Shown: piece after piece, positions 619 to 17,921 of the stretch
Layout of the letters: every line of letters starts with the position of its first letter
Position numbering within the stretch: the stretch's first letter is position 1
IMG/VR virus record: IMGVR_UViG_2531839662_000028
Span: 1 to 19,466 of that record
DNA: 19,466 nucleotides
Reading direction: 5' to 3' (one strand)
Source of the DNA: a virus
Taxonomy: Duplodnaviria > Heunggongvirae > Uroviricota > Caudoviricetes
The notes under the pieces: generated by a model
What the model saw: only the letters and a program-made list of their open reading frames with translations
What the model was told of the DNA's origin: nothing
Database searches by the model: none
Translations under genes and position numbers: made by a program

Positions 619-648
619 AAACAGATAATCAAGACAGATTATCTGTTT
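619..648. promoter_or_regulatory. Perfect 12-bp inverted repeat AAACAGATAATC-(6)-GATTATCTGTTT, candidate operator for a dimeric regulator (Ner or repressor)
   Basis: Read directly from sequence. Lies about 45 bp upstream of the ner start, in the position where Ner/repressor operators lie in Mu-family phages. Confidence 0.5.
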
Positions 649-690
649 TGATAACCCTTTATCATACGCAATATGGTTGATGTGTGAAAG

Positions 691-927: not shown

Positions 928-2890
928 GTGTGCGGGTTTATCTGGTTTACCTGGTTCATTAATGGGGATTCACAAAAGGGCACAGAGAGAAGGATGGCTC
1001 AAGAGAAGAAGAGAAGGAATTAAAGGGGTTGCTTATGAATACCATATATCTTCTCTTCCTAACTCTGCCCGAGCTGAGTTTTTGATCCAACAAGGGGGAA
1101 TTGAAACAAGCCTGGGCCGTTTTGAAATCGCCCGCCCCACGCTGGAAGCCCATGATTATGATCGTGAGGCACTGTGGAGCAAATGGGATAACGCCAGCGA
1201 TTCCCAGCGCAGACTTGCTGAAAAATGGTTGCCTGCGGTTCAGGCTGCAGACGAAATGCTGAACCAGGGGATTTCAACGAAAACGGCATTTGCGACCGTT
1301 GCTGGACATTACCAGGTCAGCGCATCCACTTTGCGGGACAAATATTACCAGGTACAGAAGTTTGCGAAGTCTGACTGGGCGGCTGCGCTTGTTGATGGCC
1401 GTGGTGCATCCCGTCGCAACGTTCACAAAAGTGAATTTGACGAGGATGCCTGGCAGTTTCTGATTGCAGATTATCTGCGACCGGAAAAACCCGCCTTTCG
1501 CAAATGTTATGAGCGTCTGGAACTGGCAGCACGTGAGCATGACTGGAATATTCCCTCCCGTGCCACGGCCTTTCGCCGGATTCAGCAACTGGACGAGGCA
1601 ATGGTTGTTGCCTGCCGTGAAGGTGAACATGCACTGATGCATCTGATACCGGCACAGCAACGAACTGTGGAACACCTGGACGCCATGCAGTGGATCAACG
1701 GCGACGGTTATCTGCATAACGTCTTTGTACGCTGGTTTAACGGTGATGTGATCCGCCCGAAAACATGGTTCTGGCAGGATGTGAAAACCCGAAAAATTCT
1801 GGGCTGGCGCTGCGATGTGAGCGAGAACATTGATTCAATTCGCCTCTCGTTCATGGATGTTGTGACTCGCTACGGTATCCCGGAGGATTTTCACATCACC
1901 ATTGATAACACCCGTGGTGCAGCGAATAAATGGCTGACGGGAGGCGCGCCCAATCGTTACCGCTTTAAGGTAAAAGAGGACGATCCAAAGGGACTGTTTT
2001 TACTGATGGGCGCGAAAATGCACTGGACAAGCGTTGTTGCCGGTAAAGGCTGGGGCCAGGCAAAACCTGTTGAACGTGCTTTCGGTGTTGGTGGGCTTGA
2101 GGAATACGTTGATAAGCATCCGGCACTGGCTGGCGCATATACGGGGCCAAATCCGCAGGCAAAACCTGATAACTATGGCGACCGCGCTGTTGATGCAGAG
2201 CTGTTTCTGAAAACCCTTGCCGAAGGTGTGGCGATGTTCAATGCCAGAACAGGCCGTGAAACAGAAATGTGCGGGGGCAAACTCTCGTTTGATGATGTTT
2301 TCGAGCGTGAATACGCCAGAACGATTGTGCGTAAGCCAACCGAAGAACAAAAACGGATGCTGTTACTGCCTGCCGAGGCGGTGAACGTTTCACGCAAAGG
2401 CGAGTTTACGCTTAAAGTTGGCGGCTCCCTTAAAGGCGCGAAAAACGTTTATTACAACATGGCGTTAATGAATGCCGGCGTGAAAAAAGTTGTGGTCAGG
2501 TTTGATCCACAGCAGTTACACAGCACGGTTTATTGTTACACCCTGGACGGTCGGTTTATCTGTGAAGCGGAATGTCTGGCACCTGTTGCATTTAATGATG
2601 CTGCGGCAGGCCGCGAATATCGCCGCCGCCAGAAACAACTGAAATCTGCAACTAAAGCAGCCATTAAGGCGCAGAAACAAATGGACGCACTGGAAGTTGC
2701 TGAACTGCTGCCGCAGATAGCCGAACCAGCAGCGCCAGAATCAAGGGTTGTTGGTATTTTCCGGCCTTCCGGTAACACGGTGCAGGTGAAATACCAGGAA
2801 CCCGATGATGAATATGAAACTGATCGTGATGAATATCTGAATCATTCGCTGGATATTCTGGAACAGAACAGACGTAAAAAAGCCATTTAA
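902..2890 (+). CDS. A: Mu-type DDE transposase A, 662 aa
   Basis: Length and order (c-ner-A-B) as in Mu. N-terminal winged-helix domain resembles the repressor N-terminus. Catalytic triad candidates in Mu-equivalent positions: D268 (codon GAC 1703-1705, INGDGY), D335 (TIDNTRG), E391 (KPVERAF). Start overlaps ner end; AAGGGA lies 7 nt upstream of the ATG. Confidence 0.95.
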
Positions 2891-2928
2891 TTAACGTTTA
2901 AACAAAATTTAATTACGAGGTTATTCAG

Positions 2929-3867
2929 ATGAATATTTCCGATATTCGCGCAGGACTGCGCACGCTTGTAGAAAGTGAAAAAGCGACTTATGCACAAATT
3001 GCACGCGAGTCTGGCGTGGCCGCAGGAACGTTAAGCGCATTCGTGAATAACAAGTACAACGGCGACAATGAACGTGTTGCGCAGACGCTGGAACGCTGGC
3101 TGGAGAACTATCACCGTGCCGCAGAGCTGCCAGAACCACCACGTTTTGTGGAAACCAGAACAGCACGCCAAATCTGGACGAGTATGCGTTTTGCCAGCCT
3201 GACTGAAAGTATTTCTGTTATCTGCGGTAATCCAGGTGTGGGAAAAACTGAAGCGGCCCGCGAATTTCGTCGCACCAATAACAATGTCTGGATGATCACC
3301 ATTACCCCATCCTGTGCCAGTGTTCTGGAATGCCTGACTGAACTGGCTTATGAACTGGGAATGAATGACGCACCACGCCGTAAGGGGCCACTCTCCCGCG
3401 CTTTGAGACGCCGTCTTGAAGGTACGCAGGGGCTGGTCATTATCGACGAAGCTGATCATCTTGGCGCTGAGGTTCTGGAAGAACTCCGCCTGTTACAGGA
3501 GTCCGCCCGTATTGGCCTTGTTCTGATGGGGAATCACCGTGTTTATTCAAACATGACCGGTGGTAACAGAACGGTTGAATTTGCCCGCCTGTTTTCCCGT
3601 ATTGCCAAACGGACGGCAATCAATAAAACCAAAATTGATGATGTAAAAGCCATTGCGGATGCCTGGCAAATTACCGGCGAAAACGAGCGGGAATTATTAC
3701 AGCAGATTGCACAAAAGCCAGGTGCGCTTCGCATCCTGAACCACTCGCTGCGCCTTGCTGCCATGACCGCCCACGGTAAAGGTGAACGTGTTAATGAAGA
3801 TTATCTGCGTCAGGCTTTCCGTGAATTAGACCTCGACGTTGATATTTCAACCCTGCTGCGCACGTAA
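2929..3867 (+). CDS. B: Mu B-type transposition target-DNA activator (AAA+ ATPase), 312 aa
   Basis: 312 aa, immediately downstream of A. Walker A motif GNPGVGKT and a Walker B-like LVIIDEAD are read directly in the translation. Confidence 0.93.
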
Positions 3868-3880
3868 GGAGAGCGAAATC

Positions 3881-4108
3881 ATGATGTCACGGAATATCAA
3901 AATGGCAACGGAAGTAAAGAGCTGGTTACAGGAGCGCGGCAGCCACGTCAACGAATCCTGGCTGGGCGTGGCCCGCCCGGTGCTTGAAATTACCTGCCCG
4001 CCACCGGAGCTGGTCAGAAACGCTGTCAGGATTATGGAGCATAAATCAGGGGTTGCCCGTTCCGTATGGACGGCCCGCCTTAATGGTTGCCAGATTATCT
4101 GGCGTTAA
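3881..4108 (+). CDS. Small early protein in the kil position (Kil-like), 75 aa
   Basis: First ORF after B, as for Mu kil. AGGAG at 3867-3871 precedes the ATG at 3881; the track's longer ORF from 3839 overlaps the B coding end and is less likely. Function assigned by position only. Confidence 0.55.
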
Positions 4109-4140
4109 TAACGGCTTATTTATTTGTGAGGAATAACAAA

Positions 4141-4410
4141 ATGGCAAAAGTAATCTTTGAATTTAACCGCATGGAAGATGTTGAGTTTCAGAAAAAAGGA
4201 GGTTTCTTTGTAGGAATGAGTGTGCAACTGGAAGAACAGTCTCCTAAGGAGCAAACCGGACCGCATGACGTGATGGCAGGCATTATCAAGAGCATGGCTC
4301 CTGAAATTATTGAAAAAGCAACCCAGGAGTTGTTGAAGTCAGCCAGAGAACTTGGGCTGGAAGCCGAAGGCGAGTTATTCCGGTATAACCCGGATGCAGC
4401 CAAACATTAA
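4141..4410 (+). CDS. Hypothetical early protein, 89 aa, acidic
   Basis: ORF with GAGGA-type RBS upstream of the ATG at 4141; the track's longer ORF from 4087 lacks an RBS. Within the semi-essential early block. Confidence 0.55.
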   Translation: MAKVIFEFNRMEDVEFQKKGGFFVGMSVQLEEQSPKEQTGPHDVMAGIIKSMAPEIIEKATQELLKSARELGLEAEGELFRYNPDAAKH

Positions 4411-4427
4411 TTTCAGGGAAGGAGGCA

Positions 4428-4717
4428 TGATGATAATCCCTCGCAAAAGATGGTCACGCGAAGACCGGGAATTTATCGAAGCCAGTGTCGGGAAAATGAC
4501 CGTCGAGGAAATGGCGAAAAAACTGAACGTTGCCCCAACCGCCCTACAGGCACATGCCAGAAGGCACGGAATATCGTTGTGTGCATACCGGGTCAGTGAG
4601 CACGACAAATATTTGTGTCGTGAACTTTATAAAGAAGGGCTGGCTATTCATGTCATTGCCCAAAAGATGGAATTAAGCAATCGTGCTGTATCCAGCATTG
4701 TATACAGCGAATATTAA
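4428..4717 (+). CDS. Hypothetical small protein with helix-turn-helix-like segments, 96 aa
   Basis: GGAAGGAGG RBS at 4417-4425 immediately upstream of the ATG at 4428. Segments MTVEEMAKKLNVAPTALQAHARRHGIS and IHVIAQKMELSNRAV look HTH-like. Confidence 0.55.
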
Positions 4718-4737
4718 TTAACAGGAGCTTTATTTAT

Positions 4738-5262
4738 ATGGCTAAACCAGCAAAACGAATCAAGAGTGCCGCAGCAGCTTATGTTCCGCAATCCCGCGAT
4801 GCCGTGGTGTGTGATATTCGCCGGATTGGTGACCTGCAACGCGAAGCGGCACGACTTGAAACGGAAATGAATGACGCTATCGCTGAAATTACTGAGAAAT
4901 ACGCCTCACAGATTGCGCCCCTTAAAACCAGTATTGAAACCCTTTCAAAAGGCGTTCAGGGATGGTGTGAAGCGAACCGCGACGAACTGACGAACGGCGG
5001 CAAGGTGAAGACGGCGAACCTGGTAACCGGCGATGTGTCATGGCGTCAGCGCCCACCATCGGTAAGTATTCGCGGTGTGGATGCGGTGATGGAAACGCTG
5101 GAGCGTCTTGGCCTGCAACGCTTTATTCGCACGAAACAGGAAATCAACAAGGAAGCGATTTTACTGGAACCGAAAGCAGTCGCAGGTGTCGCCGGAATTA
5201 CAGTTAAATCAGGCATTGAAGATTTTTCTATTATTCCGTTTGAACAGGAAGCCGGTATTTAA
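4738..5262 (+). CDS. gam: Gam-like host-nuclease inhibitor / DNA-end binding protein, 174 aa
   Basis: 174 aa, the Mu Gam length. Translation MAKPAKRIKSAAAAYVPQ...WCEANRDELTNGGKVKTANLVTGDVSWR matches my recollection of Mu Gam. AGGAG at 4721-4725. Confidence 0.88.
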   Translation: MAKPAKRIKSAAAAYVPQSRDAVVCDIRRIGDLQREAARLETEMNDAIAEITEKYASQIAPLKTSIETLSKGVQGWCEANRDELTNGGKVKTANLVTGDVSWRQRPPSVSIRGVDAVMETLERLGLQRFIRTKQEINKEAILLEPKAVAGVAGITVKSGIEDFSIIPFEQEAGI

Positions 5263-5304
5263 TACCACCATTAATATTTAATTAGTTCACTTTCTTTTAA
5301 TTAT

Positions 5305-5334
5305 GGCGCGATGCGTCAGGGGATTGCTCGCGCC
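5305..5334 (+). other. GC-rich hairpin (GGCGCGA / TCGCGCC, 16-nt loop) in the gam-downstream spacer, no T-tract
   Basis: Inverted repeat read directly from sequence in the 98-bp gap. Could be an RNA processing/stability element or protein site; not a canonical intrinsic terminator. Confidence 0.3.
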
Positions 5335-5360
5335 TGAAACAGATTACTGAGGAATAAAAA

Positions 5361-5903
5361 ATGGTTGATGCAAAAGTTCTGAATGGTGTCAGCACATTAT
5401 TACGGGCTTACGGGCGTCTGACCTGCGGGGTTCTGGCTGAAAAAATGAATATGCTGCCCTCGTCAATGGTGTATTTCCTGCGTGATGCGGTTGATGCCGG
5501 AGTTCTCACTGAATGTAACGGATTTTATGACGTTCCGCGCCCTCGTCCAACGCCGCCAGTAAGACGAAACGCAACAACGGAACACCCCGCTGTTGATAAT
5601 GCTCAATGGTGCGCGTTCCGCCGCTCTTTGCCCTGGCTGGAAGGCAATGCCATTCCGGCATTGGCAAAAGAATTTGCGACAGGCGTACTGACCTGCGAGT
5701 CGGTTTACATCGTTGCTGAAGTGGATGACGAGATGTGCAAACAGGGGATGCCCCGTTTTGTGATGGCGTATATCGATATCCGGCTGGGGCGCTTTATTTG
5801 TGGTTCCAGTGGCTGGAATATCACCGACCACGTCATGCGCTATCTCATTCTTGATTATTCACCAGCTCCGGCAGCAACACAGGAAGTCAGTGAACATGAT
5901 TAA
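5361..5903 (+). CDS. Hypothetical early protein, 180 aa
   Basis: ORF with GAGGA RBS (5349-5353) 7 nt upstream of the ATG; enterobacterial-type codon usage; no recognisable catalytic motif. Confidence 0.6.
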   Translation: MVDAKVLNGVSTLLRAYGRLTCGVLAEKMNMLPSSMVYFLRDAVDAGVLTECNGFYDVPRPRPTPPVRRNATTEHPAVDNAQWCAFRRSLPWLEGNAIPALAKEFATGVLTCESVYIVAEVDDEMCKQGMPRFVMAYIDIRLGRFICGSSGWNITDHVMRYLILDYSPAPAATQEVSEHD

Positions 5904-6078
5904 GTCAATTGGCTTTGTCCTGCTGGTTGGCACCTGCGGGAGTGATGCCTGTGATGCTATCCCGGCAACAGAAAAAATCTGGCCCACAGAGCAGGCATGT
6001 ATGCAGGTGATGGAGCGCATACAAAAACGTTATCCCAGTGGAATCTTTTATTGCGAAGAGGTATTACGAAATGAGTAA
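5896..6078 (+). CDS. Small predicted secreted or lipoprotein-like protein with four cysteines, 60 aa
   Basis: Internal ATG at 5896 overlaps the stop of the preceding gene. N-terminus MIKSIGFVLLVGTCGSD resembles a signal peptide with a non-canonical lipobox-like LVGTC. Confidence 0.45.
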   Translation: MIKSIGFVLLVGTCGSDACDAIPATEKIWPTEQACMQVMERIQKRYPSGIFYCEEVLRNE

Positions 6079-6433
6079 GCATATTTATTACGACCCTAAA
6101 TATCGGGCTGAAATGCGGGCGCAACTGGTTGTCAGTGGATATACACCGGAGCAGGCCGATACAACTCTGACAGAACTGATGGGTGAGCTTCCATTTGATG
6201 AAGCTGAATATGAATACTGGCTGAAGCAGTTCAGGCTGGAAATTCTGGAAAACACCACACTGCCATCGCTGATAAGAATAATAAAAAGCGTTATCGACAA
6301 TGCCTGCTACAACGGTGATTGCTTGGCCGCAGCAATTGCGACCCATGCTCTGGTGAATCTGCTGGAGGTTACCGGCGCAGTTTTCCTGAATCCTGAAAAG
6401 GTATTAAGAGATGAAAATACAGATGATTACTGA
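6071..6433 (+). CDS. Hypothetical acidic small protein, 120 aa
   Basis: ATG at 6071 overlaps the preceding stop. AT-rich relative to flanking genes; D+E clearly exceeds K+R. No recognisable motif. Confidence 0.55.
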   Translation: MSKHIYYDPKYRAEMRAQLVVSGYTPEQADTTLTELMGELPFDEAEYEYWLKQFRLEILENTTLPSLIRIIKSVIDNACYNGDCLAAAIATHALVNLLEVTGAVFLNPEKVLRDENTDDY

Positions 6434-6746
6434 TGCTGATTTAATGGCTGCAACCTTAATTTCCAGTGGCATGTCAGAACAAAAGGTAAATGATTTCCTG
6501 GATAATGTCGTATACCAGCACTATGAGCAGGCCAGAGAAAATTTAATTTCAGAAAAGCGCACGATGATTGCTGAATCATTAAGCCCTGCATGGATTATCG
6601 AAGAGTTGCGGGGAATCATTGCCAGTCAGGATAAAGTGGCGGCAGTTGCCGCCCTTGATGTGCTACAGCGAATGAGTAAAGAGCTATTCAACACTGAATT
6701 AATTTTAAAATCCGGGGGACATAATGAATCGCACATCCCTGATTAA
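6411..6746 (+). CDS. Hypothetical acidic small protein, 111 aa
   Basis: ORF overlapping both neighbours by ~23 nt; AT-rich; about 20 acidic versus 10 basic residues. Confidence 0.55.
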   Translation: MKIQMITDADLMAATLISSGMSEQKVNDFLDNVVYQHYEQARENLISEKRTMIAESLSPAWIIEELRGIIASQDKVAAVAALDVLQRMSKELFNTELILKSGGHNESHIPD

Positions 6747-7275
6747 ATTAATTCATGTTGCACGTCGGGAGTTGCAACTTGACGATGACACTTACCGCGC
6801 TTTTCTGGTGCAGTGCACGGGCAAAACCAGTTGTCGCGAGCTGTCCGTTGCACAACTGGAACAAGTGCTCGATGCCATGAAAGAGCGCGGTTTTAAGAAA
6901 CAGAAAAAATATCCCCGCCGTCGTTTTAAGGGGCATGTCACACCACGCGAGAAGATTTACAAAATCTGGCAGCAGATGTTTCTTGACGGTTTCGTCTCCG
7001 ATATCAGCGACGCTGCGCTGGACAAATACGTTGAGCGCCTGACAGCCAGACGTAATGGCGGACAGGGTGTTTCCACGCTGGCATGGTGTCACGGGGAATC
7101 GTTGCAGGTTGTGCTTGAAACGCTCAAACAGTGGCATATGCGCTGCATCCGTGAAGCCTTTGCCCGACATGGTGTGCCTTTACCTGTGAGCGAAACCGGG
7201 CGGGAGCTGCGCGGCTATGATGCACTGACCAGTGCGTATGCCCGCGCACGAAACAGCGGGAGAATTGCTGTATGA
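6724..7275 (+). CDS. gemA: GemA-like gene expression modulator (DUF1018-type), 183 aa
   Basis: 183 aa, directly upstream of and overlapping mor (ATGA overlap) as in Mu. Translation MNRTSLIKLIHVARRELQLDDDTYRAF... fits the GemA family pattern as I recall it. Confidence 0.8.
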   Translation: MNRTSLIKLIHVARRELQLDDDTYRAFLVQCTGKTSCRELSVAQLEQVLDAMKERGFKKQKKYPRRRFKGHVTPREKIYKIWQQMFLDGFVSDISDAALDKYVERLTARRNGGQGVSTLAWCHGESLQVVLETLKQWHMRCIREAFARHGVPLPVSETGRELRGYDALTSAYARARNSGRIAV

Positions 7276-7682
7276 AACAGATGAAAGAGCAGGATTTATT
7301 CGAAGACTTCCGGGACGACAGCGTTCTGGAATATCTTCACGATTATCAGGAAAAATATGTTTACCCGGCGCTACTTTCAGAACTGAATGCTCTGTTGCGA
7401 CAGGAACTGATAAGGCTTGGGGTTAACCCGGTCCATTCCCTTGAGTTGGTAGTGGCGATTTGTAATCATATCGGTGGGATTCAGGTATATGTTCCTAAAG
7501 GGAAAATACTGGAAAATCTTATCAGAGACATGCGCATCTGGCGTGATTTTGATGGGAAAAACGTAGCGGAACTGGTGCAGCGTTACAAAGTGACATACAA
7601 AACGGTATATCAAGCTATCAAAAGAATGCGAAGGCTGGAGCGTGGAAAATATCAAATGCAACTGTTTAAGGATGAGTCATGA
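7272..7682 (+). CDS. mor: Mor/C-family transcription activator (Mor by synteny), 136 aa
   Basis: Acidic N-terminus and C-terminal HTH (...NVAELVQRYKVTYKTVYQAIKRMRR...) typical of Mor/C activators. Position immediately after gemA. Confidence 0.85.
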   Translation: MKQMKEQDLFEDFRDDSVLEYLHDYQEKYVYPALLSELNALLRQELIRLGVNPVHSLELVVAICNHIGGIQVYVPKGKILENLIRDMRIWRDFDGKNVAELVQRYKVTYKTVYQAIKRMRRLERGKYQMQLFKDES

Positions 7683-8158
7683 AATACTTTCCTCTTATAC
7701 TTTTACTGAGCGTATTTTGCGCTAATGCGGCAAAGTTGCCAGCTGAAGATGTCATCAAAAAACGTCTGACAGAAAAAGATCTCATTGCACTAAATAGCTG
7801 GAAGCCTCTTAAGGGAGGCGATTCTATTAAGAACGGTGGAACTGAAACTGCTCACAGCAAATTCGGGGTATTTACGATCAATAATAAAGTCGTCAGCTCA
7901 AGGACGACGGTAAAGGATTTTGAAAACAATCCTTCAGGTGTGTTGTCTTCCTTTGTAGCATGCTCGCGGGTTGCAGAGTCAGCAATTGGTGAACTAACAG
8001 AGAAGCAGCAGAAACGAATTATTGACATGGTAGTTTCAGCTACAAAAGTTGAAGGGTATGGGTTAACTGACGTGATACAGGGTTTTCTCATGCAAACCAA
8101 ATTTCTCAAGATGGGTAACGATATGGTAATAGATTGCTCCATCAAAGGAGATGAGTAG
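7679..8158 (+). CDS. Secreted protein of unknown function, 159 aa (moron-like cargo)
   Basis: N-terminal signal peptide MKYFPLILLLSVFCANAA. Visibly lower GC than flanking genes. ATGA overlap with the mor stop; followed by a strong intrinsic terminator. Confidence 0.7.
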   Translation: MKYFPLILLLSVFCANAAKLPAEDVIKKRLTEKDLIALNSWKPLKGGDSIKNGGTETAHSKFGVFTINNKVVSSRTTVKDFENNPSGVLSSFVACSRVAESAIGELTEKQQKRIIDMVVSATKVEGYGLTDVIQGFLMQTKFLKMGNDMVIDCSIKGDE

Positions 8159-8177
8159 TTATCTTCCCTTAATTCAA

Positions 8178-8203
8178 TGAAGCCGGTAAATCCGGCTTTT
8201 TTT
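8178..8203 (+). terminator. Intrinsic terminator-like hairpin + T7 tract (TGAAGCCGG-TAAAT-CCGGCTTTTTTT), copy 1 of a repeated element
   Basis: 7-bp GC-rich stem, 5-nt loop, seven Ts, 20 nt after the stop of the secreted-protein gene and 56 nt before the endolysin start. Identical 26-mer recurs at 15904-15929. Confidence 0.65.
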
Positions 8204-8258
8204 ATGCCTCCGGCACCATGAAGCAGACCACGTTTAACTCTGCTTCACAGGTGTTTTT

Positions 8259-8846
8259 ATGGAAAATCAAAAATTCTCCCCGGCCTTTGAACATGCGCTG
8301 AATTTTATTCTGCGTCCTGATATCGAAGGCGTTTATGTCAATGACCCCACTGACCGTGGCGGTGAAACCAAATACGGCATTTCTGACCGCCGCGACGGTG
8401 TGATTGACGGCAAAACCGATGTCAGCGGTGACGGCAAACCGGATACCCGCATCAAAGATTTAACCCGCGAACAGGTCGCGCAGATTTACTGGCGCGATTA
8501 CTGGCTGCCTGCCGGATGTGACCAGTGGCCTGATGGCGTGGCGATGTTTGTTTTCGATGCAGCGGTTCAGCATGGCGTTAAAAAAGCCATCAAAATTTTG
8601 CAGGAAGCCACTGATATCAATGCCGATGGCATCATCGGCCCGCGCACCCGCAGGGCCGTGAACCTGGCTGACCAGAACTGGTTGCTGACCCGCTGTATTG
8701 TCCGTCGTTCCCGCTTTTATGCCGAAATCATCAAATCAAAACCCGCCCAGGGCAAATACCTGAACGGCTGGTTTAACCGCATGGAAAAACTGACCGACGC
8801 CTGTCTGGAAATCATCGACAACGCGCCGTCCACCACGCGGGGGTGA
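8259..8846 (+). CDS. Endolysin, GH108-type muramidase with C-terminal peptidoglycan-binding domain, 195 aa
   Basis: N-terminal motif EGVYVNDPTDRGGETKYGI matches the GH108 signature; C-terminal DGIIGPRT resembles the peptidoglycan-binding module. No signal peptide or TM segment. Confidence 0.85.
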   Translation: MENQKFSPAFEHALNFILRPDIEGVYVNDPTDRGGETKYGISDRRDGVIDGKTDVSGDGKPDTRIKDLTREQVAQIYWRDYWLPAGCDQWPDGVAMFVFDAAVQHGVKKAIKILQEATDINADGIIGPRTRRAVNLADQNWLLTRCIVRRSRFYAEIIKSKPAQGKYLNGWFNRMEKLTDACLEIIDNAPSTTRG

Positions 8847-8847
8847 T

Positions 8848-9099
8848 ATGGGCAAAGGCTGGGATGCCTCACTGAAAGCCGGGCGGCGTGACCGCCTGCG
8901 TCAGGAGGTTCTGCACCGCATGGCCGGAGGTCCGTCCCCGAAACCGCTGGACTATACCGGCCATGACGGCACACACGCCAGCTACTACATGCGTGGCTGG
9001 AACTCCGTGGATACACGGGACATTTTCTGGCAGTGCCAGAAGTACAGGGAAAAATTCAATGTGGAAAAAGGTAATGAACAAAATTTTAAAACTGTGTGA
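8848..9099 (+). CDS. Hypothetical basic protein in lysis cassette, 83 aa
   Basis: ATG 2 nt after the endolysin stop; good enterobacterial codon usage (CTG, GCC, AAA) through most of the ORF; no TM segment. Confidence 0.45.
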   Translation: MGKGWDASLKAGRRDRLRQEVLHRMAGGPSPKPLDYTGHDGTHASYYMRGWNSVDTRDIFWQCQKYREKFNVEKGNEQNFKTV

Positions 9100-9484
9100 C
9101 TGGCTGCTTTGTTCCCGACTGATGAGAACCCCATGGCCGCTGGCCGGACTGACACTCTGCATGTTCATCATCAGCATGTTATGTGGCTGGCGATCGTTCG
9201 TGTTGATGTTGTTGTCCTTTGCCGGGGTGGTGTTGTTTTCATACAGCGCAAGCCTCGGGAATGTGCCATTTCGCCTGCTGCCTGAGGTCCGTTACCGGGC
9301 TTTTGGTCGCCACATCATCGTGTGGTCATGGGTGGTCTGGGCGCTGGGATATTTCTGCTGCGTCTTCAGCACGCTGATGATGGTGTCACCGGTGCATCCG
9401 GTGTTCTGGCTGTGTGGTGGCTGTTGCGGCGGTCTGCTCTGTCTTCAGCGTTATCTGTATGGAGGTTTCCCGTGGATCCGTTAA
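9059..9484 (+). CDS. Multi-pass membrane protein (about four TM segments), Cys/Trp-rich; candidate holin, 142 aa
   Basis: Only + frame covering 9100-9470 with host-like codon usage. Hydrophobic segments PWPLAGLTLCMFIISMLCGW, FVLMLLSFAGVVLFSY, IIVWSWVVWALGYFCCVF, VFWLCGGCCGGLLCL. Start at internal ATG 9059 (AGGGA upstream) chosen because the upstream part of the track ORF overlaps the better-supported frame-1 gene. Confidence 0.55.
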   Translation: MWKKVMNKILKLCDWLLCSRLMRTPWPLAGLTLCMFIISMLCGWRSFVLMLLSFAGVVLFSYSASLGNVPFRLLPEVRYRAFGRHIIVWSWVVWALGYFCCVFSTLMMVSPVHPVFWLCGGCCGGLLCLQRYLYGGFPWIR

Positions 9485-10080
9485 CCCTTTCAGGCATCGC
9501 CTCTGTTCTGCTGAAAGCCGGGCCGGGGCTGATTCGTTCCGTCGGGCGCTGGTTTGGTGGCAGTACATCTGCCGCCGCTGACTCGGTGGCCGGTATGGTG
9601 GAAAGCGTCCGGGAAAGCCTTCCCGTTGCTGAACAGCAACGCATTCTGGAACAAAAACTGGTGATGCTGTCACCGGAGCAACTGGTGCAACTGGAAACCC
9701 TGAAAATTCAGCTGCAACAGCTGGAGGTGGAACGGCAGAAGCTGGTGCTGGCTGACCAGCAGGCCGCACACCACGAACAGCAGGAAACCATCCGCAATGG
9801 TGACAACGCCACGGACAGCTATGTGCGCCAGACACGCCCGCTGCTGGCCCGCCTTTCCTGTTACAGCAGTCTGGCCTATGTGCTGTTGCTCTCCTGCGGC
9901 CAGATTGCCGGAGCCATTGCCGGTGCCAGAGGTATCACGCTGCATATGCCATCACCGGACTGGGATATCACGCTGATGTTGCTTACCCCGGCGCTGGGCT
10001 ATCTCGGTGTAAGAACCCTTGACGGCTTTGCCCGTTACAGCAAATCAAGCCGTCACAAAATGTCTGCGGGGCCGAAATGA
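9472..10080 (+). CDS. Membrane-associated coiled-coil protein, lysis-associated candidate (spanin- or holin-like), 202 aa
   Basis: GTG start at 9472 preceded by GGAGG (9462-9466). Hydrophobic N-terminus, Q/E/L-rich coiled-coil middle, C-terminal hydrophobic segments. Confidence 0.5.
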   Translation: MDPLTLSGIASVLLKAGPGLIRSVGRWFGGSTSAAADSVAGMVESVRESLPVAEQQRILEQKLVMLSPEQLVQLETLKIQLQQLEVERQKLVLADQQAAHHEQQETIRNGDNATDSYVRQTRPLLARLSCYSSLAYVLLLSCGQIAGAIAGARGITLHMPSPDWDITLMLLTPALGYLGVRTLDGFARYSKSSRHKMSAGPK

Positions 10081-10304
10081 CCGACGAAATCGATCGCATC
10101 AGTGAAGTGGTTCTGAACGAGCGTCAGAGCGTCGTTAAAGCCTGGCAGACACGGACAAAAGAAACGCCCCACAGCCGGGGCTTCTGCAATGACTGCGGGA
10201 ACGTTATTCCGGCACAGCGCCTTGCGGCGCTGCCGGATGTGGTGACCTGTATTGACTGTCAGCAGATGCGGGAACGCAGGAGGAAAACGTGTCCTGGGAA
10301 ATGA
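10077..10304 (+). CDS. TraR/DksA-family C4 zinc-finger protein, 75 aa
   Basis: CxxC-x16-CxxC arrangement (CNDCGN...CIDCQ) in a ~75-aa protein, characteristic of TraR/DksA-like zinc fingers. ATGA overlap with the preceding gene. Confidence 0.75.
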   Translation: MTDEIDRISEVVLNERQSVVKAWQTRTKETPHSRGFCNDCGNVIPAQRLAALPDVVTCIDCQQMRERRRKTCPGK

Positions 10305-10594
10305 TCAGAGCCAACTGGCCCATTCTGTGGGCATTGCTGATGACAGGAATAAACCTGCTTCAGTTGATTCTGGCAAAGACCTACGTCAAGCGCGAAGAGT
10401 TTGATTTGCTGCGTTCCCGCGTGTCGGTGATGGAAAGCCAGGTACATCAGCTACCTGATCGTGATGAGTTCCACCGCCTGCAACTGGATATCAGCAACCT
10501 GCGGGGAGAAATCAAAGAGCTGGGGCCATCCATCCGCCAGGTATCCCGCATCAGCGATTTGTTATTAGAGAACGAGTTAAAGGAAAAAAATTAA
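10289..10594 (+). CDS. Small membrane-anchored coiled-coil protein (Mu gp25-like by position), 101 aa
   Basis: GTG start at 10289 preceded by AGGAGG (10278-10283). One N-terminal TM segment (WPILWALLMTGINLLQLIL) followed by a coiled coil. Confidence 0.6.
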   Translation: MSWEMIRANWPILWALLMTGINLLQLILAKTYVKREEFDLLRSRVSVMESQVHQLPDRDEFHRLQLDISNLRGEIKELGPSIRQVSRISDLLLENELKEKN

Positions 10595-10887
10595 TGGCGA
10601 TGAAAGAGATCCTCACTGAAGACCGTCGTCTGGTGTTGCTGCGTTCCCTGCTGGATTGTGGCGACAGTGCGAATGAATCCGTGTTGCAGACCTGCCTTCA
10701 GGCCTACGGTCATAAGGTATCCCGTGATGTGGTGCGCACCCAGCTTGCATGGCTGCGCGAGCAGGGGCTGGTTCGTCTGTCTGATGTGGGCGGCTGTTAC
10801 GTGGCTGAAATCACCGGCAGCGGCGAGGATGTGGCAAACGGCCTGTCCAGCGTTCCGGGCGTTAAAAAACCCCGTGCGAGGGACTGA
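10594..10887 (+). CDS. Hypothetical protein, 97 aa
   Basis: ORF with ATG overlapping the preceding TAA; host-like codon usage; part of the co-directional late block before terminase. Confidence 0.6.
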   Translation: MAMKEILTEDRRLVLLRSLLDCGDSANESVLQTCLQAYGHKVSRDVVRTQLAWLREQGLVRLSDVGGCYVAEITGSGEDVANGLSSVPGVKKPRARD

Positions 10888-10889
10888 GC

Positions 10890-11189
10890 ATGGCCCGAAA
10901 ACTGAAGCCGTTAAGTCGCGGAGAACGGGCCGTCGTGCGGCAACTGGCGTACTGCCTTGTGCTGGCAGATATTGAGCAAAACGCCATTGTCCGTGCATAC
11001 GAACAACAGACCGGAAAGCCCTGGAACCCGGATGCACCGGATACCCCCATGAAACGTGCCCTGCGTTCATCACCGGCATGTGCGCGGCTGTGGAAGCTGC
11101 TGGGTAAGGATATCCGCTCCGTTCGCGAAGAAATATACGCCGGTCTGAAAACACCGGGAACTGAAGACGGGGGCCGTCGTGAACCGTAA
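10890..11189 (+). CDS. Hypothetical protein, 99 aa
   Basis: ORF with GAGGGA RBS 8 nt upstream of the ATG; host-like codon usage. Confidence 0.6.
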   Translation: MARKLKPLSRGERAVVRQLAYCLVLADIEQNAIVRAYEQQTGKPWNPDAPDTPMKRALRSSPACARLWKLLGKDIRSVREEIYAGLKTPGTEDGGRREP

Positions 11190-11326
11190 AAAGAATCCGA
11201 TAAGTAAAGCGTCCCGTGATGAACTCCGCCGTCTGGCGCACAACCTGACATGGCGGGAAATCCAGAGCGGCGCACTGAAATCTGCATACGAAAGTTTACA
11301 GCGTAGTGAGCAACAGGAGGGCACAC

Positions 11327-11908
11327 ATGGAAAATGAACAACGCCCCACCCGTGGCCGTCTTTCCAAAGTGGATTTACTCCCGGACAGCATCCGGGAGCA
11401 GTTGCATCAGATGCTGCGGGAAAAGCGGCACACGCAGGAAGAAATCCGCGAAGCCATCAACGCCCTGATTGACGAACACAACCTGCCGGAAGAGATGCAG
11501 TTAAGCCGGACGGGCTTAAACCGCTATGCCATCCGCATGGAAAAAGTCGGGGCAAAAATCCGTGCCTCCCGCGAAATGGCCGAAGTCTGGGCGGCAAAGC
11601 TGGGTTCCGCGCCGACGTCAGACGTCGGCAAACTGCTGATGGAGTTTGTAAAAACGCTGGCTTTTGAAACGTCCATGTCGATGGCAGAAGACGACAAGCC
11701 CGTTGCACCGAAGGCGCTGGGGCAACTGGCGCTGGTTGCCCAGCGTCTGGAAGCGGCAGCCATGACCAGCCATAAACGCGAGAAAGCGATCCGTGATGCG
11801 TTTGCGCAGGAGATGGCAGAGAAAACCGAAGAACTGGTCAGAACGGGCGGTCTGTCAGGCGGTGCGGCTGACACCATCAAACGAGACATTCTGGGGATTA
11901 GCGTATGA
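11327..11908 (+). CDS. Terminase small subunit-like protein (Mu gp27 position), 193 aa
   Basis: Immediately upstream of and overlapping the large terminase. AGGAGG at 11315-11320 supports the ATG at 11327 rather than the track's upstream start at 11306 (GTG). Confidence 0.65.
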   Translation: MENEQRPTRGRLSKVDLLPDSIREQLHQMLREKRHTQEEIREAINALIDEHNLPEEMQLSRTGLNRYAIRMEKVGAKIRASREMAEVWAAKLGSAPTSDVGKLLMEFVKTLAFETSMSMAEDDKPVAPKALGQLALVAQRLEAAAMTSHKREKAIRDAFAQEMAEKTEELVRTGGLSGGAADTIKRDILGISV

Positions 11909-13440
11909 CACAAATGGATACGTTCAGTGAATATGATGTTCTGCTGCCGTATCAGAAACGCTGGGTGGCGGATGATGCCGACCTGAAAATTGCCGAGAAA
12001 TCCCGCCGTACCGGTTTAACCTGGGCGGAAGCGGCGGATGCGGCACTGACGGCATCACTGAAGAAGGAAGACGGCGGGCGCGATCACTTTTATATCGGTT
12101 CGAATAAGGAGATGGCCCGCGAATTTATCGACGCCGTGGCGATGTGGGCGAAAGCGTTTAATGCGGCAGCGGAAGAAATCTGCGAGGAAGTGATCACCGA
12201 CGAAGACAAGGACATTCTGACGTTCGTCGTGTACTTCGCCAGCGGTTTTAAGGTCAAGGCATTGTCCAGCAACCCGAGCAACATTCGCGGGATGCAGGGG
12301 AATGTCACCATCGACGAGGCCGCGTTCCATGAAAAACTGGACGAGCTGCTGAAGGCTGTGCTGCCGCTGAAAACATGGGGCGGCAAAATTCGCCTTATTT
12401 CCACCCATGACGGCGTGGACAACCTGTTTAACCAGCTGATTCAGGAAAGCCGCGCGGGCAAAAAAGATTACAGCATTCACACCATCACGCTGGATGACGC
12501 CTGCAATGACGGGCTGTACCGGCGTATCTGTCAGGTGCGCGGCATGGTGTGGTCACCGGAAGCCGAAGCGGAATGGAAAGAAGGTCTGCTGCGAAATACC
12601 GCCACCCGCGAAGACGCACTGGAAGAATATTACTGCGTCCCGAAAAACGGCGGCGGCACGTATATCCCCCGCTCACTGCGTGAACGTGCGGCCCGTGGCA
12701 CCGGGAAAGTGTTGCGCTTTACCGGCACACCGGAATTTAACGCACTGACGGAAAGCCAGCGCCGGGCAGATATCCGGGAATGGCTGGAAACAGTGGTGCG
12801 CCCTGAACTGGAAAAACTCCCGAAGAACCTGCGCCACTGTCTGGGGGAAGACTTTGCGCGTTCGGGTGACCTGACCGTACTGGCCCCGGTGACGGTGAAC
12901 GATGACACCACCCGCGAGGTGCCGTTTCTGGTTGAGCTTGGCAATGTGCCGTTTAAACAGCAGGAGCAGGTGCTGTTCTGGCTTTGCGATCGTCTGCCCC
13001 GCCGTGACGGCATCAAAATGGATGCGCGGGGGAATGGTCAGTATCTGGCAGAACAGGCGGCGGAGCGGTACGGCGACGAAGTGGAACAGGTGATGCTGTC
13101 CGTGGCGTTCTACCGCGAAAACATGCCCCGTTTCCGTGCGGCGTTTGAAGATGATGAGCTGATCCTTCCGAAGCATGAAGACGTGATCAATGACCTCGGG
13201 GCCATTCAGTTACTGCGTGGCGTTCCCGGCATTGATGATTCACGAACCCGTGGCAGCGACGGTCACAAACGTCACGGCGACGCCGCTGTGGCCATTTTCC
13301 TGGGCTTCCTGGCCAGCAAGGATGACTGCCACCGTTACGAACTGCACCGCCTGAACCGCCCGGCGAAACCGGAAGAACGCAACGCGCGCCGCCAGATGAA
13401 GCTGACGCGCGGCCTGAAAAATGAGGGAGGTTTACTGTGA
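11905..13440 (+). CDS. Terminase large subunit (Mu gp28-like), 511 aa
   Basis: 511-aa protein between small terminase and portal; overall resemblance to Mu-like large terminases; ATGA overlap with the upstream gene. Confidence 0.88.
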   Translation: MTQMDTFSEYDVLLPYQKRWVADDADLKIAEKSRRTGLTWAEAADAALTASLKKEDGGRDHFYIGSNKEMAREFIDAVAMWAKAFNAAAEEICEEVITDEDKDILTFVVYFASGFKVKALSSNPSNIRGMQGNVTIDEAAFHEKLDELLKAVLPLKTWGGKIRLISTHDGVDNLFNQLIQESRAGKKDYSIHTITLDDACNDGLYRRICQVRGMVWSPEAEAEWKEGLLRNTATREDALEEYYCVPKNGGGTYIPRSLRERAARGTGKVLRFTGTPEFNALTESQRRADIREWLETVVRPELEKLPKNLRHCLGEDFARSGDLTVLAPVTVNDDTTREVPFLVELGNVPFKQQEQVLFWLCDRLPRRDGIKMDARGNGQYLAEQAAERYGDEVEQVMLSVAFYRENMPRFRAAFEDDELILPKHEDVINDLGAIQLLRGVPGIDDSRTRGSDGHKRHGDAAVAIFLGFLASKDDCHRYELHRLNRPAKPEERNARRQMKLTRGLKNEGGLL

Positions 13441-15008
13441 ACCTGAAACAACTGGCCGGGGCCGTTCGCCGTCTGCTGAACCCGGCAACCGGTGAGGAAG
13501 ACACACTGAAAAAAGAGGCGCTCAACGAAGCACAGGCCCGTCCGCGTCATGCCGGTGTGCGTTCGGCCTCGCCGGGTATCAGCGTCGCCTCCGGGCTGAA
13601 CCCCGGCAGGCTGGCAGGCATTCTGCGCAATGCCGCCGACGGCATCACACGTGATTTTTTTATCCTTGCTGAAGAGATGGAAGAACGCGATTTGCATTAC
13701 GCCTCGGTGCTGCGCACCCGCAAGCTGACGGTGGCGGGTATCGAACCGGTGGTGGTGGCCGCCAGTGATGACGATGCTGACGTGCAACTGGCGGACGCCA
13801 TCCGTGCGCTGATGGAAGCCCCGCAAATCCCTGAGCTGATGTTTGATTTGCTCGACGGGCTGGGAAAAGGCGTGGCGGTCTGTGAAATCCTGTGGGACAC
13901 CCGCAACAACCACTGGATGCCCCGTGATTATGAATGGGTTGATCCCCGTTTTCTGAAAGCCGAAAAACCCACGCTGCACCAGTTCCGCCTGCTGACTGAC
14001 GATGAACCGGTGGATGGCGTACCGCTGACACCGGGAAAATTCATTGTTCACCAGCCGCGCCTGAAATCCGGTCTGCCGTTGCGTAACGGTCTGGCCCGTC
14101 TGGTGGCGGTGATGTACATGCTGAAATCCTTTACCGTGCGCGACTGGTGGGCATTCGCGGAAAAATTTGGCATTCCGGTCACGGTGGGGAAATACGGTCC
14201 CAACGCCACGGAGGAGCAAATCCGCGTACTGATTGATGCGATTGCCTCCATTGCCTCGGATGCCGGGTGTGCCATTCCGCAGTCCATGCAACTGGAAATG
14301 AAGGAAACCGCCAGCAGGAATAACGGCGGCGCACTGTTCCGTGAAATGGCGGAATGGTGTGATGCACAAATCAGTAAGGCTGTGCTGGGGCAGACCATGA
14401 CCACGGATAACGGCAGTTCGCGTTCACAGGCGGACGTGCACAATCAGGTGCGCATGGACATTGTGCGCTGGGACGCGCGGCAGCTGGCTAACACGCTGAA
14501 TGAATATCTGGTACGCCCCTACATTGAGGCCAACTACGGGCCACAGGCGCACTACCCCCGTGTTGTTCTGCGTATCAGTGAAGCGGAAGATTTGAAGGCG
14601 CTGACAGACGCTCTGGTGCCACTGATTGACCGGGGGATGCGGGTTCAGGAATCGGAGCTGCGGGACCGGTTCGGCCTGGCTGAACCGGACGACGGGGCTG
14701 ATGTTCTGCATCCGGTGTCTGCCGGAATGTCAGGTGATATGGCGATGAACCGCGAGCGCGTCGCCCTGAACCGTGAACACCCCGATGAACTGGCACAGAT
14801 GGTGGATGATGCCCTGCGTGACTGGCAGAAAACCGGCGAGGCGTTCACGAACCCGGTGCTGACACTGGCGCAGGAATGCGACAGTTTTGATGACTTTCTG
14901 AAACGTCTGCCTGAGCTTCAGGAAACGCTGAACGCGGACGACTTTGCCCTGCAACTGGCGGAGGTGTGCTTTAAGGCGCGTGTGCTGGGGGACACTGCTC
15001 ATGCGTGA
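13437..15008 (+). CDS. H: Portal protein (Mu gp29/H-like, DUF935-type), 523 aa
   Basis: 523-aa protein following terminase. GTG start at 13437 preceded by GAGGGAGG (13423-13430), overlapping the terminase stop. Confidence 0.85.
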   Translation: MNLKQLAGAVRRLLNPATGEEDTLKKEALNEAQARPRHAGVRSASPGISVASGLNPGRLAGILRNAADGITRDFFILAEEMEERDLHYASVLRTRKLTVAGIEPVVVAASDDDADVQLADAIRALMEAPQIPELMFDLLDGLGKGVAVCEILWDTRNNHWMPRDYEWVDPRFLKAEKPTLHQFRLLTDDEPVDGVPLTPGKFIVHQPRLKSGLPLRNGLARLVAVMYMLKSFTVRDWWAFAEKFGIPVTVGKYGPNATEEQIRVLIDAIASIASDAGCAIPQSMQLEMKETASRNNGGALFREMAEWCDAQISKAVLGQTMTTDNGSSRSQADVHNQVRMDIVRWDARQLANTLNEYLVRPYIEANYGPQAHYPRVVLRISEAEDLKALTDALVPLIDRGMRVQESELRDRFGLAEPDDGADVLHPVSAGMSGDMAMNRERVALNREHPDELAQMVDDALRDWQKTGEAFTNPVLTLAQECDSFDDFLKRLPELQETLNADDFALQLAEVCFKARVLGDTAHA

Positions 15009-15765
15009 AACTCTCATCCCGAAAGAGGCGCTGGCGTGGCTGAAGGCGAAGAAGCTGCGCCCCGGTTTTGATTACCGGGATGTATGGCGGGAAGAGCACC
15101 GGAACAGCTTCACCGTGGCAAAAATGCTGCAACTGGATTTGTTGTCGGATGTGAAAGCCCTTGTGGAAGACGCCCTGCAAAGCGGGCAGACGTTCAGCGA
15201 GTTCCGGGAGGCGCTGCAACCGCTGCTGATAAAACGCGGATGGTGGGGCGTTCAGGAGATGGATGATCCGCTGACGGGCGAAAGGCGCACCGTGCAACTG
15301 GGCAGCGACCGCCGCCTCCGCACGATTTTTGATACCAACATGCGCACCGCCCGCGCGGCGGGCCAGTGGGAACGCATTCAGCGGACAAAGCGGGCCATGC
15401 CGTATCTGATTTACGAGCTGGGACCATCCCGCGAGCACCGGGCGGAGCATGTGAAATGGGCGCGTCTGTGTCTGCCGGTAGATCATCCGTTCTGGCAGAC
15501 GCATTTCGCCCCTAACGGCTGGGGCTGCAAATGCACCATCCGTCAGGTCAGCCGTGGTGAATATGCGCAACTGGCGGCACAGGGCACCATTCACACCGAA
15601 GCGCCGGAAATCAGAACTGTCCGCTGGGTGAACAAACGCACGGGCGAAGAGGAAGAGGTGCCGGAAGGGATTGATCCGGGCTGGAACTACAATCCCGGTA
15701 TAAACCGTGAGCAGGAGCTGGTGCGCCAGCTGGCGACAAAACAGGCCCGTTTTGACAGTGAGTAA
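15001..15765 (+). CDS. F: Head morphogenesis protein, Mu F-like (shorter than Mu F), 254 aa
   Basis: Position directly after portal; start taken at ATG 15001 overlapping the portal stop. Family assignment rests mainly on synteny and is tentative. Confidence 0.65.
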   Translation: MRETLIPKEALAWLKAKKLRPGFDYRDVWREEHRNSFTVAKMLQLDLLSDVKALVEDALQSGQTFSEFREALQPLLIKRGWWGVQEMDDPLTGERRTVQLGSDRRLRTIFDTNMRTARAAGQWERIQRTKRAMPYLIYELGPSREHRAEHVKWARLCLPVDHPFWQTHFAPNGWGCKCTIRQVSRGEYAQLAAQGTIHTEAPEIRTVRWVNKRTGEEEEVPEGIDPGWNYNPGINREQELVRQLATKQARFDSE

Positions 15766-15788
15766 CCCTCCCGCCGTAAATCCCCCTG

Positions 15789-15812
15789 AAACGCATCAGA
15801 AACGCGTTTTTT
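15789..15812 (+). terminator. Intrinsic terminator candidate after F (AAACGC-atcagaaac-GCGTTT followed by T-run)
   Basis: 6-bp stem, 9-nt loop, then TTTTTT, about 25 nt after the F stop; overlaps a larger imperfect palindrome TCAGAA...TTCTGA. Confidence 0.5.
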
Positions 15813-15840
15813 ATTCTGATGGCGTGAATGTGCATTCTGA

Positions 15841-15882
15841 CGTTTTTGAAGATGCTGTGGCGTTTTTGAAGGGGTTTTGAAG
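15841..15882 (+). repeat. Three direct repeats of GTTTTTGAAG-like motif (CGTTTTTGAAG x2 spaced 20 bp, then GTTTTGAAG)
   Basis: Read directly from sequence, in the F-I intergenic region between two terminator-like hairpins; the 20-bp phasing of the first two copies suggests a protein-binding array. Confidence 0.4.
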
Positions 15883-15903
15883 GGGGTATTTCCCCGTTTT
15901 CAG

Positions 15904-15929
15904 TGAAGCCGGTAAATCCGGCTTTTTTT
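15904..15929 (+). terminator. Copy 2 of the repeated hairpin + T7 element, 50 nt upstream of the I start
   Basis: Identical 26-mer to 8178-8203; similarity continues on both sides (TTCA.TGAAGCC... and ...TTTTTTT.TGCCT.CCG.CA...TGA). Confidence 0.65.
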
Positions 15930-15978
15930 CTGCCTTCCGCATACTGACCGTCGGTAACCCCAAACGACGGAGACTGAC

Positions 15979-17843: not shown

Positions 17844-17867
17844 CCCGTCATCCGTAATCTGTAACCC

Positions 17868-17903
17868 GCAGTTAAAAGGCGCTGTGAATGCCCTTTTAAC
17901 TGC
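17868..17903 (+). other. Long perfect hairpin (12-bp stem GCAGTTAAAAGG / CCTTTTAACTGC, 12-nt loop) downstream of the major head gene
   Basis: Read directly from sequence in the 78-bp gap after T. Overlaps a second palindrome CTGCCTTTTAAAAGGCAG (17900-17917). No clean T-tract, so possibly an attenuator or RNA stability element rather than a full terminator. Confidence 0.45.
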
Positions 17904-17921
17904 CTTTTAAAAGGCAGAGTC

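Follow-up and report, generated by a model that had tools for sequence, protein, structure and literature searches.

A soluble GH108 endolysin and a probable PF11351-like holin in the lysis cassette of a Mu-like Escherichia coli prophage

A putative holin-endolysin system in a Mu-like prophage

The lysis cassette at positions 8259-10594 of the IMG/VR virus record IMGVR_UViG_2531839662_000028 appears, with moderate probability, to be a classical holin-endolysin system and not a holin-less system like that of phage Mu. The stretch analysed here (positions 1 to 19,466 of the record, 19.5 kb; hereafter, the window) is the left half of an Escherichia coli Mu-like prophage and encodes, from left to right, the repressor, Ner, transposases A and B, Gam, GemA/gp16, Mor, the terminase, the portal and head proteins. 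Two cassette proteins carry this reading: a soluble endolysin of the GH108 family and the product of a downstream gene, here termed orf202, which is the best holin candidate of the cassette (Table 1). The cassette thus differs from that of Mu, as the initial annotation of this DNA had claimed: Mu encodes a signal-arrest-release (SAR) GH24-type lysozyme, gp22, together with spanins, whereas here a soluble GH108 enzyme is combined with a PF11351-like holin candidate.

The endolysin matched Glyco_hydro_108 (PF05838; 84.2 bits against a cutoff of 21.2, E = 9.6e-24) and, in its C-terminal part, PG_binding_3 (PF09374; 64.7 bits against a cutoff of 24.6, E = 8.6e-18). It was also recovered by phrog_315 'endolysin' (1.5e-55) and, under the equivalog cutoff, by the NCBIfam model 'holin-associated N-acetylmuramidase' (2.5e-20). 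In the alignment with the solved GH108 protein NMB1012 (PDB 2IKB; 5e-20), 'iEGVYvNDPtDrGGeT' of the endolysin faces 'hEGGYaNhPkDpGGeT', which places the Glu of the EG(G/V)Y motif, the catalytic residue in this family, on E23. No hydrophobic segment was detected in the protein: no 19-residue window reaches a Kyte-Doolittle value of 1.4, and the N-terminus (MENQKFSPAFEHALNFILRPDIEG) is charged. The N-terminal transmembrane (TM) or signal segment of a SAR or signal-peptide endolysin of the Mu gp22 type is therefore missing. Both the earlier identification of a GH108 enzyme without signal or TM segment and the view that such an enzyme, lacking an export signal, should need a holin are supported by these sequence features. 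Relative to 2IKB, residues 44-62 (8388-8444) form an Asp/Gly-rich insertion (RRDGVIDGKTDVSGDGKPD), also present in the Klebsiella homologue, whose sequence resembles a calcium-binding loop.

Table 1. Features of the lysis cassette and its borders in the window
Feature	Position	Strand	Length	Evidence
Intrinsic terminator	8179..8209	+		GAAGCCGG-TAAAT-CCGGCTTT followed by a T-run; terminator scan and sequence
Soluble endolysin, GH108 + PG_binding_3	8259..8846	+	195 aa	Pfam, phrog_315, PDB 2IKB, hydropathy
Mu gp18 (E18) homologue, soluble, predicted three-helix	8848..9099	+	83 aa	blastp, phrog_2121, AlphaFold2
Cys/Trp-rich 4-TM inner-membrane protein, predicted N-in/C-in	9074..9484	+	136 aa	hydropathy, composition, phrog_12596
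Probable holin orf202, GTG start	9472..10080	+	202 aa	PF11351 relatives, AlphaFold2, Foldseek, endolysin adjacency
TraR/DksA-type C4 zinc finger, Mu gp24 position	10077..10304	+	75 aa	Pfam, TIGR02419
DUF2730 protein, Mu gp25 'releasin' family	10289..10594	+	101 aa	PF10805
Mu gp26 homologue, VpaChn25_0724 family winged-helix	10594..10887	+		61% identity to Mu gp26; NCBIfam NF050184 (7e-36)

orf202 is a divergent relative of the PF11351 holins

The orf202 gene had been described as a GTG-initiated coiled-coil membrane protein and one of several possible holins, and both descriptions agree with our data. Its GTG codon is preceded by GGAGG and aligned with the ATG-initiated 'MDPITL' start of the homologues. 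The protein comprises an N-terminal Gly-rich amphipathic helix, a helical (coiled-coil-like) domain of ~90 aa, two strong C-terminal TM helices (residues ~124-152 and 160-180) separated by a near-neutral loop, and a basic tail at the C-terminus. From the charge pattern, this tail and the segment before the second TM helix are predicted to be cytoplasmic and the short loop between the helices periplasmic; the ~90-aa helical domain is also predicted to lie in the cytoplasm.

Against PF11351 (GTA_holin_3TM), orf202 scored 19.6 bits (E = 1.4e-3), under the 24.8-bit cutoff, so the link to this family rests on intermediate sequences and on the fold, and we refer to the protein as a divergent relative and not as a curated member. 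An exhaustive phmmer search yielded 134 orf202 representatives, and PF11351 matched 26 of the 58 diverse homologues that were aligned, the best at 8.4e-9. The AlphaFold2 model consists of long helices (pLDDT 92), and its best viral fold match, obtained with Foldseek in BFVD, was 'Holin of 3TMs, for gene-transfer release' (E = 2e-7), while a Foldseek search of the PDB returned no significant match. Homologues of orf202 also lie directly 3' of the endolysin gene in three unrelated non-Mu phages, following a GH108 enzyme in Vibrio LP.1, an M15 peptidase in Janthinobacterium Donnerlittchen and an Amidase_2 enzyme in Vibrio D65.

By transitive sequence and fold evidence, orf202 falls in the same holin superfamily as the holin of the RcGTA endolysin-holin pair rcc00555/rcc00556 and TeaA of phage ICP1, membrane proteins that are required or sufficient for the membrane step of lysis. 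The PF11351 protein rcc00556 is required for lysis and release (PMC5026251), and TeaA, likewise of PF11351, collapses the proton motive force and is triggered by 2,4-dinitrophenol (DNP) (PMC7182436). orf202 differs from these proteins in its greater length, its score under the Pfam cutoff, the charges in its N-terminal helix and its location in a Mu-like late operon with a DUF2730 gene.

Several points weigh against a holin role for orf202 and, more broadly, against reading the cassette as a holin-endolysin system. Besides the PF11351 score below the curated cutoff, the N-terminal helix (residues 3-28), which the protein has in addition to its two clear TM helices, carries K15, R22 and R26; judging by its sequence, it probably does not form a genuine first TM helix, and the topology may therefore differ from that of characterised PF11351 members. 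The corresponding region is an uncharged Gly/Ala-rich stretch in the LP.1 and Donnerlittchen relatives. Donnerlittchen has a LydA-type holin, upstream of its endolysin, besides the orf202 homologue, and the orf202 family could thus be a second or accessory membrane component and not the hole-former. All topologies given in this work derive from Kyte-Doolittle hydropathy and the positive-inside rule only. Finally, some prophage copies are degraded, such as that of E. coli UMNF18, the closest copy in the databases, where DNA between the major head and tail sheath genes is deleted and two baseplate genes are frameshifted.

Search for spanins

The initial annotation had suggested looking for an o-spanin embedded in or near 9472-10594, and this search did not recover one. 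When the window, the intact KFu019 prophage and 12 related cassettes were scanned on both strands for lipoboxes, no conserved lipoprotein open reading frame (ORF) was detected, and no type II membrane protein that could serve as a spanin partner was seen in the window, the KFu019 prophage or the related cassettes. The only o-spanin candidate, a 38-aa ORF at 9261-9377, was rejected, as its 'TSSC' lipobox is weak, it has no i-spanin partner and it has no counterpart in relatives. The slot occupied in Mu by the spanin genes gp23/23.1 is filled here by the gp18-like gene, the gene for the 4-TM protein and the holin-like gene.

With the PF11351-like candidate in the spanin slot, the orf202 family could replace the spanin step or have another post-endolysin function without forming holes. 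In every phage examined its gene comes after that of the endolysin, the lineage yielded no spanin and Donnerlittchen already has its LydA-type holin upstream of the endolysin. We nevertheless regard this as very improbable: by the positive-inside rule, the long helical domain and the basic tail would be cytoplasmic, so that orf202 could not reach the outer membrane; TeaA, a PF11351 member, acts as a holin; and a spanin substitute in this place would leave the soluble endolysin without an export route in the cassette.

In Vibrio phage D65, a 58-aa extremely basic ORF (MTKAKGKAKRVF..., positions 2851-3027 of locus L025) lies directly 3' of the orf202 homologue and has no counterpart in the window. 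It is reminiscent of the phiKT 'disruptin', a cationic protein that replaces spanins.

The DUF2730 protein lacks a SAR endolysin as partner

The last gene of the cassette, a small TM and coiled-coil protein that had been listed as a further holin candidate, turned out to belong to the DUF2730 or gp25 releasin family, the very 'dedicated protein' named for Mu lysis in the initial annotation, and so is not a novel holin candidate. It matched PF10805 over residues 4-98 of 101 (105.6 bits against a cutoff of 24.9, 1.7e-30), with 27% identity to Mu gp25 (E = 2e-10) and 39-40% to the Vibrio and Shewanella proteins. A TM helix spans residues ~11-29, with a net charge of 0 in its N-side flank and K30, K34 and R35 after it, from which an N-out/C-in topology with a cytoplasmic helical domain is predicted. 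The gene is the fifth after the GH108 gene, at the limit of the ≤5 genes used for DUF2730-endolysin pairing, and transposase, GemA, Mor and portal genes are present. The substrate of a releasin, a SAR endolysin with a basic cytoplasmic N-terminus, was not found; the endolysin of the window is soluble, and the releasin mechanism as defined can therefore not apply to this DUF2730 protein.

The pairing of DUF2730 with a signal-less GH108 enzyme is already published (PMC9239132). Chamblee et al. 2022 described 34 DUF2730-bearing phages with SAR domains in only two of nine endolysin families (PMC9239132), and Table S1 of that work pairs GH108 and PG_binding_3 endolysins with DUF2730 in Vibrio Mu-like phages. 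The examples in that study are plaque-forming phages, those paired with GH108 being Vibrio phages, and its supplement makes no mention of a holin or spanin. In the Shewanella phage paper, the lysis genes of MuM16-2 were not assigned. What is new here, at the level of annotation, is the PF11351-like holin candidate, the presence of gp18- and gp19-like genes in the late operon, the lack of a recognisable spanin and the occurrence of the cassette in E. coli.

The DUF2730 protein might be an essential membrane effector, which either permeabilises or depolarises the membrane itself or triggers the holin through its Gly-rich N-terminal helix. Its gene is retained within ≤5 genes of the endolysin in every member of the lineage despite the lack of a SAR endolysin, and the N-terminal segment of other orf202-family members is uncharged, Gly/Ala-rich and SAR-like. 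Against this, Mu gp25 alone is neither lethal nor DNP-triggerable, orf202 homologues operate in non-Mu phages without DUF2730, and the N-terminal helix of orf202 in the window carries three basic residues, which together make such an effector unlikely. If it were true, 'releasin' would denote a general lysis trigger and not a factor specific for SAR endolysins.

Between orf202 and the DUF2730 gene lies the TraR-like zinc finger, whose position in the middle of the module had been pointed out. It matched zf-dskA_traR (PF01258; CxxC...CxxC, 42.3 bits against a cutoff of 24.9, 7e-11) and TIGR02419 (62.3 bits against a cutoff of 59.7). Mu gp24, which holds the same position, has no Pfam match but shows the CxxC-17-CxxC spacing of the window protein, and a TraR gene occurs at this place in the Vibrio, Shewanella and Klebsiella relatives as well; its location is thus not an oddity.

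gp18- and gp19-like genes follow the endolysin

The gene directly 3' of the endolysin, missed in the initial annotation, encodes a homologue of Mu gp18 (69% identity over 72 aa, E = 1e-36, blastp), with 44% identity to the Shewanella and 31% to the Vibrio counterpart. Both this protein and Mu gp18 match phrog_2121, and relatives of the window protein carry Pfam PF26867. H23, H43 and C63 are invariant in the family, while position 39 is H or C; from the alignment, these four residues could form a metal site. The AlphaFold2 model contains three helices (pLDDT 77), and Foldseek found no significant match for it in the PDB. In Mu, gp18 is encoded upstream of the endolysin.

phrog_2121 aligns gp18-like and orf202-like sequences end to end. 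A fused gp18-orf202 Rosetta-stone protein was considered and rejected as unsupported, the protein search having returned only proteins of 51-90 aa. In a Serratia metagenome-assembled genome, a 196-aa ORF (positions 3423-4013 of locus L015) fuses the first ~54 gp18-like residues with the 4-TM protein. This fusion, the only one of its kind, probably reflects a frameshift or an error of assembly, and it may explain the mixing of families in phrog_2121.

The next gene encodes a protein with four hydrophobic segments, 10 Cys and 8 Trp, which matched phrog_12596 (5e-48). A start at 9059, as given in the initial annotation, is possible, but 9074 agrees with PGAP and with the Klebsiella homologue. The start overlaps the gene of the gp18 homologue and the stop overlaps the orf202 start. 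It is the fastest-evolving member of the module: homologues in the same slot in Klebsiella, Raoultella, Kluyvera, Pluralibacter, Serratia and Brenneria share 28-67% mutual identity, the Cys-rich E. coli type formed only 4 clusters among 5.8 billion proteins, and a tblastn search against phages gave no match. NCBIfam had no match for the gp18 homologue (orf83), the 4-TM protein, orf202 or the DUF2730 protein.

The 4-TM protein is probably the positional counterpart of Mu gp19. Both have four TM helices in N-in/C-in topology, are rich in Cys and Trp, contain a 'CGWR' motif and are encoded by genes that overlap the end of the gp18 gene. Their sequence relationship is suggestive only: the blastp E value was 0.47 with composition correction and 2.6e-5 without it, hhalign aligned 103 collinear columns with a marginal P of 0.024, above 30 of 30 shuffles, and the two proteins belong to separate PHROGs (12596 and 4975). 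When tested as a holin, Mu gp19 proved negative, DNP treatment did not render it lethal, and Mu can lyse without it (PMC9239132).

The initial annotation had also proposed the 4-TM protein as a holin candidate, and it could be the holin or form half of a holin/antiholin pair with orf202: it is small, has several TM segments, is encoded directly upstream of orf202 and is translationally coupled to it, its position and topology are kept in all nine Enterobacterales relatives, and fast evolution is common in holins and antiholins. This role seems improbable, though. The gene is absent from the Vibrio and Shewanella cassettes, which must still lyse (the Vibrio phages, at least, were sequenced from plaques), the protein has no holin-family match in Pfam, NCBIfam or PHROGs, and it follows the gp18 homologue in the manner of gp19, for which the published tests were negative (PMC9239132). 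By analogy with gp19, its role is probably accessory, and orf202 remains the preferred candidate for the holin.

Operon layout, coding status and occurrence in E. coli

The genes of the cassette abut or overlap by 1-26 nt, which, together with the terminator (8179-8199) just upstream, indicates one late operon analogous to the Mu lys operon. The terminator closes the upstream, Mor-containing transcript, and the late 'lys' promoter should be located within ~50 bp 3' of it. The hairpin and the bases after it are kept in Klebsiella phage Kp4866-3, and Mu has a comparable terminator arrangement ahead of Plys. The gp26 homologue at the other end marks the point where synteny with the Mu late operon resumes.

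The region 8259-10594 is 98.9% identical to the UMNF18 prophage and was found in 51 of 5426 complete E. coli genomes (~1%). A megablast search with the region against the phage collection gave zero matches, and searches at the protein level were used instead. In the UMNF18 prophage, PGAP called the same six genes (GH108, three hypothetical proteins, TraR/DksA and DUF2730), and the coordinates of each ORF listed in the initial annotation were confirmed, so these ORFs can be considered real. The window's own prophage copy stays intact past the head genes.

Comparison of four E. coli variants revealed a third-codon-position bias that supports coding, with substitution counts at positions 1/2/3 of 23/6/51 in orf202, 25/9/57 in the DUF2730 gene, 11/3/27 in the TraR gene and 34/29/76 in the GH108 gene. 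The 4-TM ORF was intact in all four variants but varied too little for a strong test (12/5/14), and its coding status is supported by divergent homologues in nine Enterobacterales relatives. The bias and the homologues thus speak against the possibility, raised in the initial annotation, that the membrane ORFs are non-coding, the bias test being weak for the 4-TM ORF.

Distribution and comparison with Mu

The order GH108, gp18-like, 4-TM, orf202, TraR, DUF2730 and gp26 is kept in Klebsiella phage Kp4866-3 and in prophages of Raoultella, Kluyvera, Klebsiella, Pluralibacter, Serratia and Brenneria (nine Enterobacterales genomes). Identities to Kp4866-3 were 66% for GH108, 78% for the gp18-like protein, 71% for orf202, 60% for DUF2730 and 77% for gp26, whereas its 4-TM protein is 28% identical and not Cys-rich. 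Vibrio myophages of the Nahant collection (e.g. 1.028.O) and Shewanella vB_SspM_MuM16-2 have the same order minus the 4-TM gene; as in the window, Mor and a ~150-aa signal-peptide protein are followed by GH108, gp18-like, orf202-like, TraR, DUF2730 and gp26-like genes. Their orf202-like proteins, 39-41% identical to orf202, are annotated merely as 'coil containing' or 'transmembrane' proteins. In Vibrio phage Martha 12B12, an orf202 homologue (39% identity) was the sole cassette gene observed in this analysis; this phage is reported to have a DUF2730 gene and no recognised endolysin, only an L,D-transpeptidase-like protein (PMC9239132).

Mu shares the backbone and its order with the window, namely GemA/gp16, Mor, the terminator, a late lys operon, a zinc finger in the gp24 position, DUF2730, gp26, gp27 and the terminase, and the identities to Mu were 59% for Mor, 69% for gp18, 27% for gp25, 61% for gp26 and 47% for gp27. 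The gp18- and gp19-like genes lie in the late operon after the endolysin in the window, whereas in Mu they belong to the middle operon, and Mu gp20 and the separate C gene between Mor and lys have no equivalents here. The lineage-wide gene order in Enterobacterales, Vibrio and Shewanella indicates that the cassette is an old alternative to that of Mu and not a recent swap. The module had been called 'swapped or mosaic', a description that holds on a deep timescale only, the order being common to the whole lineage.

Neighbouring genes

Between Mor and the terminator, 7679-8158 (+) encodes a protein of 159 aa that seems to start with a cleavable signal peptide (MKYFPLILLLSVFCANA|AK, which is no lipobox). 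It matched only phrog_38744, with no match in Pfam, NCBIfam or PADLOC. The slot is hypervariable among E. coli copies, which differ by gaps and by 286 non-synonymous versus 40 synonymous codon changes, and KFu019 has no gene there. Klebsiella-type prophages and phage Kp4866-3 have a 110-aa membrane protein in this slot, and the Vibrio and Shewanella phages have unrelated signal-peptide proteins of ~150 aa. The slot looks like a moron slot, and the secreted protein was rejected as a lysis component on account of the hypervariability and of the empty slot in KFu019.

In 7272-8259, no separate gene for the late activator C was found between Mor and the endolysin, whereas the order in Mu is Mor-18-19-20-C-lys. 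The annotation of the whole prophage shows a single gene of the Mor/C family, and late-gene activation may therefore differ from that of Mu. Downstream of the gp26 homologue, the N-termini of two ORFs, 10890-11189 (99 aa) and 11179-11337 (52 aa), both match phrog_8988, which suggests a partial duplication in tandem; E. coli variant L006 lacks the 52-aa ORF. A PADLOC scan of six proteins from the cassette and its neighbourhood detected nothing.

Proposed lysis mechanism and implications

We treat the domain content, the absence of an export signal from the endolysin, the operon structure, the homologies and the conservation as established, and the following scheme as what they suggest. Transcription would start 3' of the terminator, and the folded GH108/PG_binding_3 muramidase, presumably active, would build up in the cytoplasm. 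orf202 would meanwhile collect in the inner membrane and, at a set time, open holes through which the muramidase reaches the cell wall; we infer hole formation from family membership and from the conserved position of orf202 homologues beside endolysin genes. Accessory or regulatory functions may fall to the gp18 homologue and the 4-TM protein, whose genes are coupled in translation to that of the holin. The TraR-like and DUF2730 genes occupy the gp24 and gp25 positions, which are conserved parts of the Mu backbone, and the most likely, though uncertain, role of the DUF2730 protein would be to modulate the timing or triggering of the membrane step. As no spanin was recognised, the scheme assigns no gene to the outer-membrane step.

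A stronger version, which we consider rather doubtful, is that the DUF2730 homologue is required for lysis together with a holin and a soluble endolysin and with no spanin, for instance as a factor that sets off or holds back the PF11351-like holin via the Gly-rich N-terminal helix of the latter. If this were so, releasin would serve transposable phages in general as a timer or trigger of the membrane step, the holin-less system of Mu would be a derived special case, and the absent outer-membrane step would point to an unrecognised spanin substitute. Our results refine the annotation of this cassette and do not establish a new mechanism. The role of DUF2730 beside non-SAR endolysins was left open by Chamblee et al. 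2022, who called its test 'an important next step' (PMC9239132), and the cassette, carried by ~1% of complete E. coli genomes, offers a native, tractable E. coli system for this question.

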